A stretch of 32,000 nucleotides of DNA from Candidatus Thorarchaeota archaeon (GTDB lineage: Archaea > Asgardarchaeota > Heimdallarchaeia > Hodarchaeales > Hodarchaeaceae). Below the pieces are notes generated by a model that saw only the letters and a list, made by a program, of their open reading frames with translations, made no database searches and had not been told where the DNA came from. Numbering within the stretch: the stretch's first letter is position 1; every line of letters starts with the position of its first letter. Below, piece by piece: positions 22,543-31,990 of this stretch. The DNA is taken from NCBI GenBank assembly GCA_048882505.1, contig JBHLRO010000009.1, positions 60,001 to 92,000 on the forward strand, written 5' to 3'. The position numbers and the translations under genes were made by a program.

Positions 22543-23580
22543 ATGGTATCCATATCAACACCTAAAACCTCACAAGATATTGAAATTCTCTTGAATTTTT
22601 ATCTAGCTTCGGCTGCGGTGGGCGTAGCTCTTGAGCTGGGGTTATTTTGGCAGCTTCGAGATAGTTCTCTGAAGTTAACCGAGATATCGGATAAATTCAA
22701 AATCCCAGAGGATCGATGTCGGACGTGGCTTGCGTTATTGATCAAATTAGGATTAGTGACATTGCAAGGGGAACGATACTTTCCCTCTGGTGCCTCCAAG
22801 CAGGCCATTACGGATGTATATAGCCATGAAACGTGGTCATTTTTAGCCCAAGAAGCTCGAGAACAGCAGCCAGCAGTGATAGATTTAGCGTTACACTTCT
22901 CCCAGGCATCAATGTGGGAAGCTTATTCAAAGGAGGCCCCTAATTATGTCACTCTAATGAAAAACGATGCTCAGCGAGCAGAGCGTTTCACACGGATGTT
23001 GTATGAACTCCATACACCGTTGGCAGAATTTTTAGCCAAAAACCTAAATCTATCAGGTGTCAACATGTTAATGGATCTTGGTGGTGGATCAGGAGTTATT
23101 TCTATTGAGCTGATGAAACAAAACCGCGATTTGAATGTAATTGTGGTTGATATTGCCAATGTTTGCACCGCAGGAAGGAGAATTGCCAATGAAACTAGTG
23201 TATCTGATCGTATCACATATTTTGAAGCTGATTTTTTGCATGATGAATTACCACGGGATATAGACCTCGTCCTTGAGTGTGATGTTGGTGTATACACATT
23301 GGATCTTTTTAAAAAGGTGCTAAATTCCCTGAATACGAATGGACGTTTTATCATTGTTTCCAATACAGATGAATTAGGGGCCTGGTTACTAAAACCAAAG
23401 GAATCCGTTTCAATTTTGCCTTGTATGTTTGCTTTTTCATCATCATTGCGAGATCCCAAATTTAAACCCCCTACGATCAATCATGTGAAAAATCTGCTCG
23501 AAGAGGCAGGATTTCAGGATATCAATGTCCAAATTGAAGATGATGGGAGAGTTATAATTGAAGGAATGAAGGGAGGCTAA
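22543..23580 (+). CDS. SAM-dependent O-methyltransferase family 2 (ASMT/HIOMT-like, with dimerisation wHTH)
   Basis: N-terminal AAVGVALELGLF...L..LGLV dimerisation domain, LMDLGGGSG SAM motif I, and VD and ADFL motifs. Confidence 0.9.
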   Translation: MVSISTPKTSQDIEILLNFYLASAAVGVALELGLFWQLRDSSLKLTEISDKFKIPEDRCRTWLALLIKLGLVTLQGERYFPSGASKQAITDVYSHETWSFLAQEAREQQPAVIDLALHFSQASMWEAYSKEAPNYVTLMKNDAQRAERFTRMLYELHTPLAEFLAKNLNLSGVNMLMDLGGGSGVISIELMKQNRDLNVIVVDIANVCTAGRRIANETSVSDRITYFEADFLHDELPRDIDLVLECDVGVYTLDLFKKVLNSLNTNGRFIIVSNTDELGAWLLKPKESVSILPCMFAFSSSLRDPKFKPPTINHVKNLLEEAGFQDINVQIEDDGRVIIEGMKGG

Positions 23581-24362: not shown

Positions 24363-25280
24363 TTAAAATGGAAGGAGCAAGGCGGCAAATATAAAAGCTA
24401 ACCAAATGTTATGAAGTTTAAAACTTCTATACGCTGTTTGTTCTGATGGAGTCTTCAAAAATCTGTATAGACCAGAAAAGAGGAAGAAATGAGGGATAAA
24501 AATCAATAACAGGATGATAATTGATCCGTTTGTCATCATGTAAGTAAGAATTGTTGCATACGCGATAACTAGTATTCCCCAAACAAACGTAATTTGAGCT
24601 GTACGCGGTATCCCGTATACAACGGGGAGCATTGGGATGTTGGCTCGACGATAATCTTCAATGTACTTGGTTGCTAATGACCACGTATGACTTGGGGTCC
24701 AAAAGAAGACCAAAAATCCAAGTAACCATCCTTCCAATGGGATTGTTCCAGTTATAGCCGCATAACCCATCAACACTGGGGTCGGGCTTGCCAGACCCCC
24801 GAGGAGAGTATTTACGATTGACCTTCTCTTCAGCACTAAAGAATATCCAAGCAAATAATAGAATACACCCCAGCCCACAAAAAAAGCGGTCAAGGCGTTG
24901 AATACCAGAAAAGCAAGAGCTATGGCAGCGATGACAAATATGGATCCCACAAAGAGTATCTTTTCTGCAGGATTGATCGCATTTTCTCCGACACTGGCTC
25001 TTTGCGAAGTTCTTTCCATTAGACTATCAATATCCCGATCAAGATATGCATTAATGGTCATTGCGCCTCCTGCTGATAAATATCCGATAATAATTGCTAT
25101 CATCAACTCAATGATCGAAAAATTACCCTTAGAAGCCAATATAAATCCTACAATACCCGTTATCGAAAGTAATACGACAATTCGTGGCTTGGTTAAGGAT
25201 AAATAAGCTCTAATAGTATTTTGAGCTTGATTAACACCCGTTTTTGGTTTTGAATAAACTGTAAGATAATCAGTAGACAT
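24363..25280 (-). CDS. cyoE: Protoheme IX farnesyltransferase (heme O synthase)
   Basis: LTKPRIV, NAYLDRDIDSLMERTSQR, WTPSH..SL...EDY..ANIPMLPV motifs and multiple TM helices (CtaB/CyoE hallmarks). Confidence 0.95.
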   Translation of the reverse strand: MSTDYLTVYSKPKTGVNQAQNTIRAYLSLTKPRIVVLLSITGIVGFILASKGNFSIIELMIAIIIGYLSAGGAMTINAYLDRDIDSLMERTSQRASVGENAINPAEKILFVGSIFVIAAIALAFLVFNALTAFFVGWGVFYYLLGYSLVLKRRSIVNTLLGGLASPTPVLMGYAAITGTIPLEGWLLGFLVFFWTPSHTWSLATKYIEDYRRANIPMLPVVYGIPRTAQITFVWGILVIAYATILTYMMTNGSIIILLLIFIPHFFLFSGLYRFLKTPSEQTAYRSFKLHNIWLAFIFAALLLPF

Positions 25281-25802: not shown

Positions 25803-27437
25803 ATGAACATGCTCCTAACATCTTGTATCCTAAAGAATTTCAAGTCTATAGCTAATATCTCCCTTTACGGCCTACAAAACCTTAATTGCTTTATCGGCCC
25901 GCATAATTCCGGTAAAACCAATATCCTTGATGGAATTTCTACGTTTTTTGACCCTTCTCAACGAGCTTACCTGCAACACAGGCAGATCGTGAGCTCAGGA
26001 ACCCATGTGAGTTCAGAGAGAGAATTTGATAGAAATATTTTGACGTACCTAGGAGGAGGTAAACACATTCGTGGAACCTTCCTTTTCGATATTAAGGGAA
26101 TTCGGGAAATTGGAAGCAGAAACGAGGTCATCCGAGATTTTGTCAGGGAAATAGAAGGATATTCCAGCATCGATCAGATCGGAAAACTAGAATGGCAGCT
26201 CATGATGGATTCAGACCAGTTTACGTTACTGGATCAAAAACTCTTCCTATATCTCTTTAAGGATCGAAGAATCCAGGTTGAATCACGGGATCTCCCGTTA
26301 TTTCAGCAAGCTTTCGGAACGACCTTTTTTTACAGATTTCCTGACAACTTGAATGCCCAAGTAAGTCGTTTAGAAGCAAATTTATCCCAATTGATTAAGA
26401 ATAATGAGTACGAGCACATGGCTGCTATTGAAGACTTTCTACGGGATATATTGGATCAGCAAATTGTTTTTGAGCCATCAGATGGAAAAGGAATTGAGGT
26501 AACCGTTGAAAAAGCTTTTACAAGTCCTTTATCACGAATTTCATCAAGCACACAGCGCCTTGTTTTAATGTCGTACGTCTTAACAAGTATCCCCAGCCCT
26601 AGAATCATTTTGATAGACAATCCGAATCTTTACTTACACCCTAGAGGTGAACGAAAACTCGCCAAAAGGTTCATTAATTTGGATAACAAACAAATCTTTC
26701 TTTCTACTCACTCCGCTCGCCTTTTAATTGGAAATGCATTTTTAGTAGATCTGAAAAAGGGTTTCACTCGCGTTCGCAGCATTCGGGGGGAGAAATCAAT
26801 GAATGATGTGGTTAAACTTCTCGGTATAAGGCCATCTGATAGTTTTGGTGCTGATATAGTAATCTTCGTTGAAGGTAGAACTGATGCGAGGGTTTATCGA
26901 GCCTTTGAGGATATTATTGCGGCTTCCACTCAAAAACAGAGCTTTCCTAGAAATAAAGTAGCTTATATTGGTGTTGGGGGATGGACAAATATTCGGTTTG
27001 CTCTCCATTTGGAACTTTTAAGAAGTAAGTTTGTACGGAGTCGCGCCCTCGCAATAACTGACGGAGACATAAAGGACTCAGAAACATATTTTCAGATAAA
27101 ACAGAACTGGAGTTCAGTATTCTCAGAGAACTCTTTTTTCAGTTTAAAAGAGAAATCCATTGAGTCTCTATTTTTGAATAATCCTTTAGTTTTTTATCGG
27201 AAGGCTGAAGCCAGTGGTAACCATCAAAGATTGCCTCCGGTCGAAAAACTAAAGGATTCCATCTCCAAAAAACGACGACGGCGTAGTGATAAAATAATTA
27301 TCAGAGAAATAATAGAAAAGTATTTTGAGAAACGCTATACCTCATCCATGGCAGAGCAACTTGCTATGTTGTTTAAGGTTGAAGAAATACCTGAATATTT
27401 GGCAAGTTTTTTTAGGATAGAAGTGATCAACACATAA
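25803..27437 (+). CDS. OLD-family ATP-dependent nuclease (ABC-type ATPase + TOPRIM)
   Basis: Walker A GPHNSGKT, Walker-B region LIDNPNLYLHP, H-loop STHS, TOPRIM FVEGRTD and TDGD, and SIE motif. Confidence 0.85.
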   Translation: MNMLLTSCILKNFKSIANISLYGLQNLNCFIGPHNSGKTNILDGISTFFDPSQRAYLQHRQIVSSGTHVSSEREFDRNILTYLGGGKHIRGTFLFDIKGIREIGSRNEVIRDFVREIEGYSSIDQIGKLEWQLMMDSDQFTLLDQKLFLYLFKDRRIQVESRDLPLFQQAFGTTFFYRFPDNLNAQVSRLEANLSQLIKNNEYEHMAAIEDFLRDILDQQIVFEPSDGKGIEVTVEKAFTSPLSRISSSTQRLVLMSYVLTSIPSPRIILIDNPNLYLHPRGERKLAKRFINLDNKQIFLSTHSARLLIGNAFLVDLKKGFTRVRSIRGEKSMNDVVKLLGIRPSDSFGADIVIFVEGRTDARVYRAFEDIIAASTQKQSFPRNKVAYIGVGGWTNIRFALHLELLRSKFVRSRALAITDGDIKDSETYFQIKQNWSSVFSENSFFSLKEKSIESLFLNNPLVFYRKAEASGNHQRLPPVEKLKDSISKKRRRRSDKIIIREIIEKYFEKRYTSSMAEQLAMLFKVEEIPEYLASFFRIEVINT

Positions 27438-27518: not shown

Positions 27519-28409
27519 ATGAATCGAGTGGTCATCTCTGGACTCCAAAATTCGGGTAAATCATCGATTTTTAGGGAAACTTACCAAAACTTGTCCCCTC
27601 CTCCACATGACGAGGATGATTACTATAAGGCGAAAATTCTGAAAGCAAAGTCCCTGGGAAAATTCCTCAAAATCGAATTTGATGAAGTATCTGGGGATCA
27701 TCTGGCAAATCTTCCTAAAACTCAAATTAAAGACCATTTTCAGGGTGTTGCTGCATTAATCTGGGTAGTTGACATATCTAATGAACGGACGATTGCTACC
27801 TCCCTCTTTTATTGGAATCAATTGGTAAAAAAAATGGATTCTTTTCCTTTTTTACTGAAATTCATATGTTTCCACAAAACGGATCAAGTCGAAAATATAG
27901 ATCAAAAGCAAGGATTTTTTGGTTCATTACGTCAAGATTTTACTTCAGTAACCTTAACACCCCCCGTTTTCTATTACACCTCCCTTCACGATAATTCTAC
28001 ATATGTTCTCATGGCCAAGGTTCTTCAAAGCATTCAAGAAAAATCCATCGTCTTTAAACAAATGGAACATAAGACCAAAGAGTTTCTGTTGATGAATGAA
28101 GATTTTTTCGGTGTTGCGATAATTTCAAACGAAGGTTTGGCTGTAATTGAAACAGGGGAGAAGGTGGAATTCGTTACTTTGCCAGCAAATCTATGGTTAA
28201 GTACGAATGATCGCCTTCGAGAGGCATTTAATATCCAAGAGGGACTGGCTTGTACCATCCATTTAGATGAACAGACTCTAATATTCTTTGATTTAAATCC
28301 TGAACTTCTTTTATGCACTATTTCGAAAAAAGAAGCCCCGCTCCAATTTTCCTTCGTTCGGTCCGATTTACTTGGGCAAGTGCTCCGTGAAATACTCAAA
28401 GAAGTATGA
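27519..28409 (+). CDS. Rag/Gtr-like P-loop GTPase domain fused to a C-terminal roadblock domain
   Basis: G1 GLQNSGKS, LIWVVD, G4 HKTD and G5 YTSLHD. The C-terminal part FFGVAIISNEGLAV...TLIFFDLNPELLLCTIS is roadblock/LC7-like. Confidence 0.75.
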   Translation: MNRVVISGLQNSGKSSIFRETYQNLSPPPHDEDDYYKAKILKAKSLGKFLKIEFDEVSGDHLANLPKTQIKDHFQGVAALIWVVDISNERTIATSLFYWNQLVKKMDSFPFLLKFICFHKTDQVENIDQKQGFFGSLRQDFTSVTLTPPVFYYTSLHDNSTYVLMAKVLQSIQEKSIVFKQMEHKTKEFLLMNEDFFGVAIISNEGLAVIETGEKVEFVTLPANLWLSTNDRLREAFNIQEGLACTIHLDEQTLIFFDLNPELLLCTISKKEAPLQFSFVRSDLLGQVLREILKEV

Positions 28410-28452
28410 AAGGATTCTTTGGTTTTCGATTTTCGAACTATCCTCTGTAAAA

Positions 28453-28492
28453 AGATTTTAAATCTGTTTTTTTCTAAAAAAAGTTTTTTTTT
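28453..28492 (+). terminator. T/A-tract-rich region, probable terminator of the GTPase gene
   Basis: AGATTT-T-AAATCT palindrome, then T7 (28467-28473), A7 (28476-28482) and T9 (28484-28492). Confidence 0.4.
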
Positions 28493-28566
28493 GATTTCTT
28501 TCATGATCCTATTGTAAGTTTCCTCCCTTCAGACGACACTCATACCCCTATTAATAGTGATATCTT

Positions 28567-30012
28567 ATGTCAAATGATATTAAAGCTAAAATTAGAGCCG
28601 TGCTCGACACAGAGAATGTAATGTACCTTGCCACGGCGGTAGATGGTATTCCTTCTGTTTCTTCGGTCTTTTATGGCTACGATTCAAAAACCTTCGAACT
28701 TTATTTCTTCACCTTTACTCCCACGGTAAAGGGGGTTCATATCGGGTTCAACAAGAAGGTACAGGTGCATATTTCTAAAAAAGCGGATGAAGGGGATCAG
28801 ATAAAGGGGGTGCAGGTCACTGGTAGAGCCGAAAAAATCAAAGATGAAGAGACAATAGAAAAAATTAAGCCATTAATTAATATAGCTTCTAATTCGGCCT
28901 TTGTTGACTATTACGATCTTCCAGTAGCAGGTTGGTACCGAATAGTTCCAACACAGATCAAATATATCGATTTTTTTTCTGATCCACAATTTGAATTTCT
29001 GGAGTTCCGAGAAAACCAACCATCGTTCTTTCAGAACTTTGGAGAAGCGGTAGTCTCGCGACTTAAGGTATGGGTAGCGACAACTCGGGCTCCATTCTTT
29101 ACCGCGTCGATCATTCCAGTATTGGTTGGAGCGGCGTTAGCGTTTAGTTTAACTGGCGTAATTCATTGGCCTTATCTATTCCTGACCTTAATAGGTGGTG
29201 TATTGCTGCACGCAGGTACAAACATGCTTAATGATTATTTTGACCACACTTCACGGAATGATGAAAGCAATCAACACGGATTCATCCCCTTTTTTGGTGG
29301 ATCTAGGATGATTCAAACGGGTACGATGTCAAGTTTGAAGATTGGCATTGCTGCTTGGATCTGTTTCATCATCGGAAGTTTGATAGGGCTTTACCTTGAA
29401 TCACAAATCGGGGGGCAAGTAATTACATCTCTTGTAATATTTGGTGCATTTTTAGGTATTTTCTATACCGCAGATCCATTACGAATTGGATACCGTGGAT
29501 TGGGCGAAATTACCGTTGCCCTTGGCTTCGGCCCGGCCTATACACTTGTTTCATTGTATGTTCAAGTTGGTGCGACCGGGACTCCCTTGGATCTTACGTT
29601 ATGGATTGTTGGGATGTTCTGGTCAGTCCCCTTGGCGCTCTTGGTTGCAAATATTCTACTCATAAATGAATTCCAAGATTATGAAGCTGATCTTAAAGTA
29701 GGTAAAAGGACCTTGCCAGTCCGTCTTGGTAAGAAACGTGCTCTGTCTATTTACAAACAGATAAACACATTAGCGTATGTAGTAATATTGGCTGGAGCAG
29801 TCGTGTTCTTCCAAAATGCGTTCTTAACAGTATTGGCCTTGATCACTTTTCCTTTGGCTAGAAAAGCCATGGTTCATGCAGAAAAGCATTTTGATAAAAT
29901 ATTTGAGTTAATCCCAGCTAATGTTATGACCATTGGTGTACATCTATTTACAGGTGCCCTGATAATTTTGGGCTTGGTTCTCACTAGAATTGTTCTCCCT
30001 ATCCCCAGCTGA
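28567..30012 (+). CDS. menA: Fusion of an N-terminal PNPOx-like split-barrel domain to MenA (1,4-dihydroxy-2-naphthoate prenyltransferase)
   Basis: About aa 1-150: YLATAVDGIP...TVKGVHIGFNKKV...GVQVTGRAEKI...YRIVP (split barrel). About aa 167-481: TRAPFF, NMLNDYFD, NEFQDYEADLKVGKRTLPVRLG (MenA). Confidence 0.88.
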   Translation: MSNDIKAKIRAVLDTENVMYLATAVDGIPSVSSVFYGYDSKTFELYFFTFTPTVKGVHIGFNKKVQVHISKKADEGDQIKGVQVTGRAEKIKDEETIEKIKPLINIASNSAFVDYYDLPVAGWYRIVPTQIKYIDFFSDPQFEFLEFRENQPSFFQNFGEAVVSRLKVWVATTRAPFFTASIIPVLVGAALAFSLTGVIHWPYLFLTLIGGVLLHAGTNMLNDYFDHTSRNDESNQHGFIPFFGGSRMIQTGTMSSLKIGIAAWICFIIGSLIGLYLESQIGGQVITSLVIFGAFLGIFYTADPLRIGYRGLGEITVALGFGPAYTLVSLYVQVGATGTPLDLTLWIVGMFWSVPLALLVANILLINEFQDYEADLKVGKRTLPVRLGKKRALSIYKQINTLAYVVILAGAVVFFQNAFLTVLALITFPLARKAMVHAEKHFDKIFELIPANVMTIGVHLFTGALIILGLVLTRIVLPIPS

Positions 30013-30347
30013 ATATTGATTTAACGTCTAGCGTCAGCGGTTTGTATTTTAGGGGATTCTAGTTTAATTCCTGCCCAAATTTTACCTTTCAAAATCCGTA
30101 ATATTGGGGAGGTGAAAAATTATTTCCTCTATGGTAACGAGAAATATATTAGATACCGAAAACCATCAGTATCTGTTTTTGGAGAAAAAATCCTCTCTCA
30201 AATCTAGGGAATATTGACAGTAGAAAAAAGAAACATCAGTTTTCTTAAAGGTAATTTCAAATTCTTTGTCAGGTCTCCCTTTACATAGTCCAGGTTATCT
30301 ATTCATTAACGATAATGTGGAGTTCACCCCAACAATGGGTTGACAAG

Positions 30348-31664
30348 ATGTACGAGAATGAACGATACGATGTAATAATATGTGGAGCTGGCGTGGCTGG
30401 ATCTGCCACCGCAATACGGCTCATGCAAAAAAATCCCGAATTAAAGGTAGCATTAATAGATCGTGGAGACCCGATTGGATCAAAAAACGTATCAGGAGGG
30501 GTTTTATGGGGATCCGCTCTTGAGGAAATCATTCCCGAATGGTGGACCAAGGCCCCCATCGAACGACGGATAATTCAGAAACGAACAGGACTTCTTACAA
30601 AAACAGATGCCTTAACCGTGGATTTTCATTATCCGAATTGGAGGTCAAATCCTGATGGATCTCCAAACGCTGTTAGTCTTCTTTTGGGAAAATTCGTGCA
30701 TTGGTTGGCTGAAGAAGCGGAAAGAAGCGGTGCCCACGTTTACAGTGGAATTACCGTTGATGATTTATCACGAGACCCAGAAGGGCGTATTAATGGAATT
30801 TACCAAGCAGATGATTTCTTTGAATGCGATGTGGTGGTAATTGCCGATGGTGCGAATTCTCGTCTAGCGTTGTCCTCTGGCCTCTGTAAAGAAATGAAAA
30901 AAGAACATTACGGGTTGGCGGTAAAAGAGATTTTAAGCCTCTCCGCAAAGACTATTAATGATCGATTTAATAATCTAACCGCTACAACAGGTCTAGCAGC
31001 GGAATACGTCATAGGAGGGCTCCCCAATGGTATCCGTGCTGGTGGATTTCTCTACACGAATGAGGAGACATTATCATTAGGAGTGATCATTCAGATTGAC
31101 ACGTTAACCGATCCGGAGTTTCCTCCAGTAAAGGTATACGAAACTTTCAAACAACATCCTCATATTCGAAATTTGGTTGAAGGCGCCGAACTTCTGCAGT
31201 ATTCCTCTCATTGGGTACCAGAGGGAGGGATTCATATGGTTCCCCAACTTTTCGATGATCACGTATTGGTTGTTGGAGACGCAGCGGGTCTCGTTCTATC
31301 AAATGGTATGATAATTCAGGGGATCAATTATGCGATAGAAAGCGGAATAATGGCTGCTGATACGATTCATGACGCCTATAGAAAACGCGATTTCTCTCGA
31401 GCGACTCTTAAACAATATGAACGGAAACTTGATAAATCGGTACTAAAGGATCTAAAGAATTTCAAGAATGTTCACAAAATTACCCGAAATCCTCGTCTTT
31501 ACGACCAATATCCCGATATTTTCCTTGAAATGTTTCATGAAATGCTCACAGAGCGGAGGAAACCTAAAAAACATCTTATAACACTATTTCGAAACGCAAA
31601 AAAGACTCAGAAAGTCGGATGGTTACGTCTGATCCGTGATGGATTAACCTTAAGACACTTTTAG
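30348..31664 (+). CDS. fixC: FixC-like ETF:quinone oxidoreductase flavoprotein
   Basis: GAGVAG dinucleotide motif, GSKNVSGG, ADGANS, GGFLYTN, VPEGG and LVVGDAAG motifs. Adjacent to fixX. ATG 30348 preferred over 30315. Confidence 0.9.
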   Translation: MYENERYDVIICGAGVAGSATAIRLMQKNPELKVALIDRGDPIGSKNVSGGVLWGSALEEIIPEWWTKAPIERRIIQKRTGLLTKTDALTVDFHYPNWRSNPDGSPNAVSLLLGKFVHWLAEEAERSGAHVYSGITVDDLSRDPEGRINGIYQADDFFECDVVVIADGANSRLALSSGLCKEMKKEHYGLAVKEILSLSAKTINDRFNNLTATTGLAAEYVIGGLPNGIRAGGFLYTNEETLSLGVIIQIDTLTDPEFPPVKVYETFKQHPHIRNLVEGAELLQYSSHWVPEGGIHMVPQLFDDHVLVVGDAAGLVLSNGMIIQGINYAIESGIMAADTIHDAYRKRDFSRATLKQYERKLDKSVLKDLKNFKNVHKITRNPRLYDQYPDIFLEMFHEMLTERRKPKKHLITLFRNAKKTQKVGWLRLIRDGLTLRHF

Positions 31665-31689: not shown

Positions 31690-31977
31690 TTGGCAGAAGA
31701 AGTCAAAGTTCAGGATAAACTGGGTTCGGTACCTTATGTAACAGATTCTGAAGAAAACGCACACATAACTGTGCAACCGGATATTTGCAGAAAGTGTCCT
31801 CATCACCTCTGTATTGCAGGATGTCCTGCTGGTTGCTTTACCTTTATCGATGGAGAGATGGTATTTCGCTATGAAGACTGCGTAGAATGTGGTACATGCT
31901 TTCTTCAATGTGACCAGGGATCAGTCACTTGGAATAACCCTCGTGGCAGTTTCGGTGTGAAATATTATACTGGGTAG
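31690..31977 (+). CDS. fixX: FixX-like ferredoxin
   Basis: CRKC...CIAGCPAGC and CVECGTC...C motifs, WNNPRGSFGV C-terminus. TTG start with GGAG upstream. Confidence 0.92.
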   Translation: MAEEVKVQDKLGSVPYVTDSEENAHITVQPDICRKCPHHLCIAGCPAGCFTFIDGEMVFRYEDCVECGTCFLQCDQGSVTWNNPRGSFGVKYYTG

Positions 31978-31990
31978 AATGGAGTCAACA

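Follow-up and report, generated by a model that had tools for sequence, protein, structure and literature searches.

A split-barrel domain fused to a MenA/UBIAD1-like prenyltransferase in Heimdall archaea and several bacterial phyla

A single gene in the window, the 32,000-nucleotide stretch of DNA analyzed here, encodes a genuine two-domain membrane protein, in which a split barrel is attached to a polyprenyltransferase through a conserved linker and an amphipathic helix. Its closer relatives are MenA-like enzymes, mostly fused, and form with it a clade separate from canonical MenA; the clade is found almost only in genomes without the classical (MenB/MenD) or the futalosine (MqnA/D) head-group pathway. 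We propose that the N-terminal domain carries flavin and reduces a quinone head group, salvaged or supplied by a route outside the known ones, or else the prenylated product, to the quinol for the pathway of the C-terminal domain; we put the probability of this reading at about 45%. If it is true, genome-based metabolic reconstructions that call the gene MenA and infer menaquinone synthesis from it are incorrect or leave something out for large groups of uncultured organisms, among them SAR406/Marinimicrobia, many Chloroflexota, and most Heimdall, Loki, and Thor genomes, and the carriers either depend on the quinone head groups of their neighbors or hold a head-group pathway that has yet to be described. 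The fusion would also give experiments direct access to a step that normally escapes notice: which protein reduces the quinone for UbiA-type prenylation or MenG methylation.

Architecture and domain assignment

The gene is one unbroken reading frame of 481 aa that begins with ATG (Table 1). It is preceded by an intergenic gap of 157 nt (28410-28566), with a Rag-like GTPase gene on the upstream side; no small gene for a PNPOx partner protein adjoins it. Both Pfam domains scored above their cutoffs: PNPOx_N (PF01243) at aa 6-132, with 39.1 bits (cutoff, 28.1), and UbiA (PF01040) at aa 182-438, with 101.1 bits (cutoff, 34.2). The continuous fusion put forward in the original prediction was thereby confirmed, and the two motifs quoted in it were located, P-S-V-S-S-V at aa 29-34 and T-V-K at aa 53-55. 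An AF2 model was confident over both domains (pLDDT, 86.8; pTM, 0.79), and the predicted inter-domain geometry recurs between fused proteins; the Atlas model and that of another fused cluster superimposed with a TM score of 0.88 over 470 aligned residues. The linker contains an extra strand and an E-F-x-E-N motif (E146/N150), and F136, E146, N150, and R174 are invariant or nearly so in alignments of fused sequences.

Table 1. Features of the fusion gene and its surroundings (window coordinates)
Feature	Position	Strand	Evidence
Whole ORF: PNPOx/GS26-like domain, linker, and MenA/UBIAD1-like polyprenyltransferase	28567..30012	+	Pfam, NCBIfam, homologues, AF2 model
N-terminal split-barrel domain, aa 1-135, GS26/COG3871 branch, predicted cytoplasmic	28567..28971	+	Pfam, Foldseek, profile vs PDB
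PdxH-type flavin-phosphate motif region, aa 47-66, F-F-T-F-T-P-T-V-K...N-K	28705..28764	+	Alignments and mapping onto PdxH
Conserved linker and amphipathic helix before TM1, aa 136-174	28972..29088	+	Conservation, AF2 secondary structure, comparison with unfused forms
UbiA-family membrane domain, aa 175-481, nine predicted helices	29089..30009	+	PF01040, phmmer, Foldseek, AF2
First Asp-rich motif, N219, N222, D223, D226 ... N231, D232, N235	29221..29271	+	Alignment
Second Asp-rich motif, N367, D371, D375, K380, T382	29665..29712	+	Alignment
FixC-like ETF:quinone oxidoreductase flavoprotein, ETFQO_UQ-bd domain	30315..31664	+	Profile matches
FixX ferredoxin-like protein	31690..31977	+	Profile matches
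Heme O synthase (CtaB/CyoE), second UbiA-family gene	24363..25280	-	TIGR01473, 240.6 bits vs cutoff 210.3

A homologue search gave over 80 cluster representatives that carry both PF01243 and PF01040, at 36-96% identity and 95-100% query coverage; the assemblies behind them are independent and come from archaea and from several phyla of bacteria. The architecture is present in Heimdall/Hodarchaeota, Marinimicrobia, Calditrichota, Chloroflexota, Gammaproteobacteria, and others, and the Atlas clusters that share it have 60-164 members. Identity in the N-terminal domain tracks that in the C-terminal domain (74/72, 70/62, 57/61, and about 39/43%); the two domains evolve at similarly slow rates. Many Asgard genomes of the Loki and Thor types carry unfused relatives, and congeners of the host manage with an unfused homologue, which implies that the N-terminal domain can be done without or that its role can be filled in trans. 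Recent transfer from bacteria was considered and rejected: in a tree whose root is unplaced, the window's Heimdall lineage is not nested in the bacterial type-I clade and forms a deep branch of its own within the mostly fused clade.

The assignment of the N-terminal domain as a PNPOx-like split barrel was borne out by the Pfam score and by fold matches (Foldseek neighbors 2i02, 3ec6, 2fhq, 3db0, and 2hq9; TMt, 0.72-0.83). Its nearest solved relatives, at 1e-13 to 1e-14, are general stress protein 26 (GS26; 3e-13) and Lin2891 (1e-14) of COG3871 (PDB 3ec6 and 3db0), which share the single barrel of ~135-150 aa and an aligned K...N-P motif. Whereas these are free-standing soluble proteins, the domain described here is tethered to a membrane enzyme and has an additional conserved linker.

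Contact with the flavin phosphate and isoalloxazine in PNPOx proteins was judged by a strand Arg, an [ST]-R-K motif, and a conserved Gln, with the motif residues mapped onto what we take to be the FMN contacts of PdxH. T49, T53, K55, N62, Q83, and G86 are kept. R54 and P63, which the bacterial members have, are replaced by V and K throughout the Heimdall lineage of the window, and the position of the strand Arg is Ser (S30/S32/S33) in all type-I members; flavin binding is therefore not assured. In the Heimdall family f2 the domain is degenerate, has neither K55 nor Q83, and is barely detected by Pfam, so that it can evidently persist without the flavin motif. No site for an electron donor such as NAD(P)H was identifiable in the fusion protein. 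F420 is unsupported as the cofactor: the match to Ddn was insignificant, TIGR03618 gave 27 bits (cutoff, 79), and the host has CofD (269.6 bits, above 257.45) and, by profile search, no match to CofH.

The membrane domain belongs to the UbiA superfamily by its Pfam score, its two Asp-rich motifs, both invariant across 20 fused sequences, and its eight/nine-helix fold, modeled by AF2 as nine long helices over aa 175-476. A search with Foldseek identified 8djk, 4tq3-6, 6m31, and 7bpu, with 8djk_B on top, and phmmer against the PDB likewise found 8djk, UBIAD1 (E value, 1e-13), which is the closest solved structure by both sequence and fold, at ~21% identity. To call this part a complete MenA, as had been done, proved too strong, since every MenA equivalog model scored below its curated cutoff: TIGR00751 (84.6 versus 102.15), NF004751 (144.5 versus 264), and NF004749 (134.5 versus 277). 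Two relatives, at loci L111 (121) and L094 (105.6), do exceed the TIGR00751 cutoff. With MenA (EC 2.5.1.74; TIGR00751, PRK06080) the fusion shares the nine-helix UbiA fold, both Asp-rich motifs, and a G-S-R-x-I-Q-x-G segment after the first of them, and all of its best NCBIfam matches are MenA models. It differs in the added split barrel, in having no linkage to menB, and in occurring in hosts without DHNA synthesis; the Asgard family f3, which has MenB, is only 28-34% identical to the query, as is the MenA of MenB-containing relatives.

Head-group pathways in the carrier genomes

The host genome is a metagenome-assembled genome (MAG) that is 94.6% complete. Profile searches of it found no PF02621 (MqnA/D), no MenD, and no true MenB, the best match to the last reaching 130 bits against a cutoff of 342.7. 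When 18 carriers drawn from six lineages were searched, only two, both Caldithrix, had PF02621 and a MenB match above cutoff. One Caldithrix genome, G013, encodes a canonical MenA (220 bits) alongside the fusion. Of 201 Asgard genomes surveyed, 90 have a close homologue, and neither MenB nor PF02621 was found in any of these; the absences are read from MAGs, although the same pattern is seen in genome after genome. It recurs in Marinimicrobia (81 genomes surveyed), where none of the 18 genomes with the fusion and none of the 7 with a close unfused form has MenB or PF02621; MenB is present in 19 of the 20 with a distant canonical MenA, which often adjoins menB. Homogentisate was rejected as a general acceptor, because HPPD (TIGR01263) occurs in 0 of the 18 fused and 1 of the 7 close-unfused Marinimicrobia. 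The host itself has HPPD.

Proposed function and competing readings

In the mechanism that we propose, the C-terminal domain would join a polyprenyl chain to a quinone head group of naphthoquinone or related type, which would come from environmental salvage or an undescribed pathway. The N-terminal domain would act as a flavin-binding dimer, most likely with FMN, and perform the two-electron reduction on which this chemistry depends. This could take place at either of two points: the oxidized head group may be reduced to the quinol before prenylation, as UBIAD1 requires for menadione, or the prenylated quinone may be re-reduced for methylation by MenG, as NDC1/NdbB does in phylloquinone synthesis. 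The fusion would keep an oxygen-sensitive quinol beside the membrane active site. Of the original prediction, a cofactor-sensing or redox accessory domain coupled to menaquinone synthesis, a redox accessory role in prenylquinone synthesis remains the best-supported part; heme sensing is unlikely and DHNA upkeep unsupported.

There are biochemical precedents. The eukaryotic menadione prenyltransferase UBIAD1 is inactive without a reductant because menadione needs prior reduction (PMC4398444); UBIAD1, like the enzyme in our model, uses a head group that its cell does not synthesize, but it lacks a flavin domain and depends on reductant supplied in trans. NDC1 reduces demethylphylloquinone ahead of methylation (PMC5030760), a case of a dedicated flavoenzyme that works after MenA and before MenG on the prenylated naphthoquinone; unlike the N-terminal domain, NDC1/NdbB has a type II NAD(P)H dehydrogenase fold and is separate from the prenyltransferase. 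Ddn, a split-barrel enzyme, is a menaquinone reductase (PMC8498797). As an F420H2-dependent FDOR-A protein from the PNPOx superfamily, with membrane naphthoquinones as substrates, it resembles the proposed arrangement, but it is a separate protein, and the N-terminal domain matches its profile only at an E value of about 0.9 and falls in the GS26/COG3871 branch.

A broader version of this proposal is that the fused clade represents a third, undescribed route to respiratory prenylquinones, with a head group from obligate salvage or a novel pathway and a built-in flavin domain that carries out the compulsory quinone-to-quinol step on the prenyltransferase itself; we hold this only tentatively and think it rather unlikely as a whole. 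Its users would be the abundant SAR406 ocean bacteria, Chloroflexota, and Heimdall relatives of eukaryotes, and it would amount to a self-contained prokaryotic version of what UBIAD1 does. For SAR406, obtaining a head group from dilute seawater is not obviously feasible.

The chief competitor to a reductase is a non-catalytic N-terminal domain, serving as a dimerization scaffold or as a ligand- or redox-sensing regulator, with its flavin chemistry lost or never used. Split barrels are obligate dimers, which counts for a scaffold, and the R54V and P63K changes, the f2 forms, and the sufficiency of unfused homologues for the congeners all fit this explanation. Other UbiA proteins carry sibling fusions at the same N-terminal position, and these point both ways: PAS+UbiA is sensor-like, but luciferase-like monooxygenase+UbiA places a catalytic flavoenzyme fold there. 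Also against it, the flavin-motif residues of type-I members, beyond the core ones, are invariant across phyla. A domain without catalysis is a possibility that we take seriously, if an unlikely one.

Alternatively, the C-terminal domain might prenylate a non-respiratory acceptor, such as another aromatic, a flavin, a phenazine-like compound, or a lipid head group, which the N-terminal domain would bind, make, or deliver. That the clade misses the MenA equivalog cutoffs, is uncoupled from both menaquinone pathways, sits beside a canonical MenA in Caldithrix G013, and has common unfused relatives in Loki- and Thor-type genomes all counts in favor of this account. The best family matches are nonetheless all of MenA/UBIAD1 type, with two relatives above the TIGR00751 cutoff; a MenG/UbiE methylase adjoins the fusion at two loci; its context in the window is respiratory; and the homogentisate version fails on the Marinimicrobia data. 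We judge such an acceptor less likely still.

It is improbable that the protein is a standard MenA whose DHNA is synthesized de novo and whose accessory domain keeps the DHNA reduced or senses heme. This reading draws on the similarity to MenA models and on the presence of heme-binding split barrels among the Foldseek neighbors of the N-terminal domain. The first function presumes that DHNA is made, yet the host and nearly all carriers have neither MenB/MenD nor MqnA/D, and the proposal is unsupported for that reason. Heme binding of the HugZ/HutZ/HOZ kind, for which a conserved axial His and closest similarity to heme-binding members would be expected, is unlikely, and we dropped it as the leading idea: no His or Cys is conserved in aa 1-150, and the profile matches to heme binders (HutZ, 3.6e-4; PtHOZ1, 1.3e-3) were some ten orders of magnitude weaker than those to GS26-type proteins.

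An artifact, in which two separate genes were joined by read-through or an assembly chimera, had been named as one of two outcomes that would overturn the fusion, and we discount it almost entirely, since well over 100 sequences keep the junction and linker, across phyla and across assemblies made independently, and nothing was found in its favor. The fusion had also been thought undescribed. In the literature library that was searched, no paper describes the split-barrel and prenyltransferase combination, but at the level of databases the second of the two outcomes holds: the architecture is already common and annotated there under generic names (such as "UbiA family prenyltransferase" and "DHNA octaprenyltransferase/NimA-like FMN flavoprotein"), so it is new as biology and not as a sequence architecture.

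Neighborhood and respiration of the host

The host has a respiratory chain, with COX1, heme O synthase, and ETF plus FixCX, and it also encodes a UbiE/MenG-type methyltransferase. Which quinone the oxidase-bearing Heimdall archaea use, and what its source is, matters for models of how far the archaeal ancestor of eukaryotes could respire. In the window, the fusion gene lies just upstream of fixCX, as originally noted, and the ETF-beta gene follows from position 31979, with ETF-alpha next, past the window end. The adjacency is not conserved in congener G151, where fixCX is absent next to the homologue.

A UbiE/COQ5 methylase adjoins the fusion at loci L003 and L007. When ORFs were clustered across 23 fused loci from bacteria and archaea and a further 21 from Asgard genomes, no other cross-phylum neighbor emerged, and a conserved operon context was rejected; the remaining genes at these loci are housekeeping ones, encoding thermosome, RF-2, LysS, FolP, and CdaA.

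Domain structure and relation to MenA

As predicted, the split barrel and the prenyltransferase lie in a single unbroken ORF of 481 aa, in which both quoted motifs, P-S-V-S-S-V and T-V-K, were found. In the AlphaFold2 model (pLDDT 86.8, pTM 0.79) the barrel has an extra strand and is followed by an amphipathic helix at aa 154-172 and then nine long helices. The predicted arrangement of the domains is a recurrent one, as the Atlas model matches a different fused cluster with a TM score of 0.88 over 470 residues. UBIAD1 (8djk) is the nearest match to the C-domain by fold and its closest solved homologue. In a 20-sequence alignment both Asp-rich UbiA motifs are invariant, and the linker is strongly conserved (P128, K132, D135, F136, E146, N150, then R174-A-P-F-F-T).

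Features of the fusion and its surroundings; L113 is the locus that continues past the window's end
Feature	Position	Strand	Profile match
Very long ORF, 1616 aa	16968-21818	-	
COMT/BchU-like O-methyltransferase	22543-23580	+	Methyltransf_2 + dimerisation domain
Heme O synthase (the window's other UbiA gene)	24363..25280	-	TIGR01473, 240.6 bits vs 210.3
OLD-family protein	25803-27437	+	AAA_15/AAA_21 ATPase + OLD-like TOPRIM
Gtr1/RagA-family GTPase	27519-28409	+	Pfam, 46 bits
Fusion	28567..30012	+	
Fusion, PNPOx_N	aa 6-132		Pfam, 39.1 bits vs cutoff 28.1
Fusion, UbiA	aa 182-438		Pfam, 101 bits vs cutoff 34.2
FixC-like	30315..31664	+	
FixX	31690..31977	+	
ETF-beta/ETF-alpha and downstream region	L113 1979-3908 (window 31979 onward) and L113 5501-6196 (-)		

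The description of the C-domain as a complete MenA proved too strong: all of its best NCBIfam matches are MenA models, but every score falls under the curated cutoff (TIGR00751, 84.6 versus 102.15; NF004751, 144.5 versus 264). Two relatives exceed the TIGR00751 cutoff, the unfused homologue of a congener (L111, 121 bits) and a fused form of Heimdall family f2 (L094, 105.6 bits).

Co-occurrence across genomes says more than these scores; genomes were compared for menaquinone head-group genes, all calls of pathway absence resting on MAGs. The host, whose assembly of 4.32 Mb is 94.6% complete, gave no match to PF02621 (MqnA/D) or MenD, and its best MenB match scored 130 bits where the cutoff is 342.7. 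Six lineages supplied 18 carrier genomes, and of these the two Caldithrix alone have both MenB above cutoff and a PF02621 match. The query was matched in 102 of 201 genomes of the host's phylum, 90 of them closely (E<=1e-30), and none of those 90 has MenB (E<=1e-70) or PF02621. True MenB (396-419 bits) occurs in Asgard family f3, which matches the query only at 28-34% identity and E about 1e-23, the level that canonical MenA would give. A survey of Marinimicrobia took in 81 genomes that were at least 80% complete. Neither MenB nor PF02621 was found in the carriers (0/18 fused, 0/7 close-unfused). A further 20 of the genomes match the query only through a distant MenA, about 300 aa long; 19 of these have MenB, and the two genes are often direct neighbours (e.g., genome G258, contig C31). 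In one Caldithrix genome (G013) the fusion, at 83 bits, coexists with a canonical MenA that scores 220 bits. The anti-correlation with both known head-group pathways is clean in two unrelated phyla. We conclude from this pattern of co-occurrence that the clade is a MenA-like paralogue family, not the MenA of either known pathway; together with the true MenA alongside the fusion in that one Caldithrix genome, the anti-correlation makes the MenA label doubtful and points to quinone salvage or an unknown pathway.

In Asgard family f13 a MenB-like crotonase was also seen in 23 of 40 genomes (e.g., G117:C71:3824-4597) at 305-335 bits, just below the MenB cutoff, and looks like an orphan MenB-like enzyme; none of the 40 f13 genomes matches the fusion query at E<=1e-20.

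The N-domain and its proposed role

In the 20-sequence alignment the N-domain carries the motif F-F-T-x-x-P-[TS]-R-K-x-x-Q-I-x-x-N-P, followed by conserved Gln83 and Gly86, which we take to be the PdxH pattern of flavin-phosphate and isoalloxazine contacts. Its nearest folds are PNPOx-like, GS26, and HugZ-like barrels. By profile, Lin2891 comes first at 1e-14 and General Stress Protein 26 next at 3e-13; matches to Ddn (0.9) and to heme binders of the HutZ or HOZ kind (about 1e-3 to 1e-4) are far weaker. N-domain identity to relatives tracks that of the C-domain (74/72, 70/62, 57/61, and about 39/43%), so the N-domain is under comparable constraint. Three types separate in a wider alignment: type I, in the window's fusion and most bacteria; type II, with an R-x-R...G-D-P-K pattern, in Dehalococcoidia-like forms and one Asgard form; and type III, in Heimdall family f2, which is degenerate and lacks K55 and Q83.

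UbiA-type aromatic prenylation requires an electron-rich quinol. UBIAD1 is inactive without reductant, and its authors concluded that menadione has to be reduced first (PMC4398444); MenG methylation in the phylloquinone pathway depends on prior re-reduction of the prenylated quinone by NDC1, a flavoenzyme dedicated to that step (PMC5030760); and Ddn, a split-barrel enzyme of the same superfamily as the N-domain, is a known menaquinone reductase (PMC8498797). We propose, with a probability of about 0.45, a role for the N-domain as a dimeric flavin reductase, its cofactor probably FMN, which would supply a head group or product as the quinol, or keep it in that form, at the active site in the membrane. 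The head group itself would come from salvage or from an unknown route. F420 has no support as cofactor: CofD was found in the host, and CofH was not detected there.

Degenerate type III forms, PAS siblings, and the R54V change speak for a non-catalytic N-domain acting in dimerisation or as a sensor, a reading we consider less likely. The R54V change, with P63 to Lys, is found in 6/6 members of the window's Heimdall lineage, which retains S30, T/S49, T53, K55, N62, Q83, and G86. With the MenA label in doubt, the C-domain might prenylate a different, non-quinone acceptor, which seems less probable still. Besides the heme O synthase and the fixCX and ETF genes near the fusion, the host has COX1 elsewhere in its genome (456 bits), as well as a methylase of UbiE/MenG type that is full-length and scores 160 bits. 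A UbiE/COQ5 methylase adjoins the fusion at loci L003 and L007; the host still needs a quinone, and the picture is one of prenylation and methylation without a head-group pathway. A homogentisate-type acceptor was rejected as a general explanation, as the occurrence of 4-hydroxyphenylpyruvate dioxygenase in Marinimicrobia does not follow that of the fusion clade. The host has a bona fide copy of this enzyme (G000:C5:85744-86808, minus strand; 420 bits versus a cutoff of 277), so homogentisate is available in this archaeon.

The original prediction was of a cofactor-sensing or redox accessory domain coupled to menaquinone synthesis, for example one that keeps DHNA reduced or senses heme. A redox role on the quinone step survives as the leading reading, but the de novo DHNA and heme version is improbable: the failure to find head-group genes in the host and most carriers argues against the former, and the latter is opposed by the finding of no conserved His or Cys in the N-domain alignment and by HutZ/HOZ matches far behind Lin2891 and GS26.

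Distribution and evolution of the fusion

More than 80 cluster representatives with both PF01243 and PF01040 precomputed came up in a word-indexed search. Their matches span 95-100% of the query, and identity is 57-96% within Heimdall/Hodarchaeota and 36-43% in KSB1, Marinimicrobia, Calditrichota, Planctomycetia, Chloroflexi, and Arenicellales. Fused loci were found in named genomes of Caldithrix, Marinimicrobia, Anaerolineales, Dehalococcoidales, Tepidiformales, and Gammaproteobacteria, and several ESM Atlas clusters of 60-164 members contain both families. An exhaustive profile search with the N-domain and linker gave 478 representatives at E<=1e-10, the top matches being mostly fusions about 440-530 aa long, or fragments of these. 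This recurrence across archaea and bacterial phyla disposes of a read-through or assembly chimera. The architecture is indeed common at the database level, under generic names (e.g., 'UbiA family prenyltransferase', 'DHNA octaprenyltransferase/NimA-like FMN flavoprotein'), and a full-text literature search found no paper on it; the fusion is an uncharacterised, unstudied variant of a known enzyme kind.

A tree of 71 prenyltransferase-domain rows, made under the PMSF model, contains a clade (SH-aLRT 95) with 45 fused and 6 unfused rows. Within it, 11 rows make up the window's Heimdall lineage, a deep branch of its own with support 99. The clade also takes in a bacterial type I clade (24 rows, support 99), the fused forms of Heimdall families f2, f4, and f5, and the congeners' unfused genes, grouped with a sequence from Promethearchaeota. 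In the host genus the fused form occurs only in the host and G151; seven other species have instead a single unfused homologue (40-44% identity) that keeps the helix before TM1 and lacks the E-F-x-E-N linker. Such a pattern would arise if the N-domain had been lost or if one form had displaced the other, so the fused and unfused forms are probably interchangeable in role. Type II fusions take other positions in the tree. At least 3-6 changes are needed to explain the fused state, gain and loss not being separable with certainty because the root is unknown.

A PAS domain as N-terminal partner of a related UbiA protein was confirmed at one locus (L046, 897-2201). PAS_9+UbiA was seen in Iainarchaeum, Fidelibacterota, Chloroflexota, and Thermoplasmatota (L046 and Atlas clusters), and a luciferase-like monooxygenase joined to UbiA in Chloroflexota (Atlas clusters). 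Another locus, L076, reads BPD_transp_1+UbiA, which may be an ORF-calling artefact.

Genomic neighbourhood

The predicted adjacency to fixCX was borne out: fixC, fixX, ETF-beta, and ETF-alpha lie directly downstream of the fusion, all co-directional, as a complete fixCX-etfBA module. SCO1/SenC follows on the opposite strand, with an iron-dependent repressor bearing a FeoA domain and FeoB further downstream. Directly upstream of the fusion is the Gtr1/RagA-family GTPase, which has a C-terminal extension and is conserved together with the OLD-like gene in the congener G151 (L107). The OLD-family protein, between this GTPase and heme O synthase, is a candidate defence nuclease. The COMT/BchU-like O-methyltransferase adjoins heme O synthase and could act on a quinone or tetrapyrrole.
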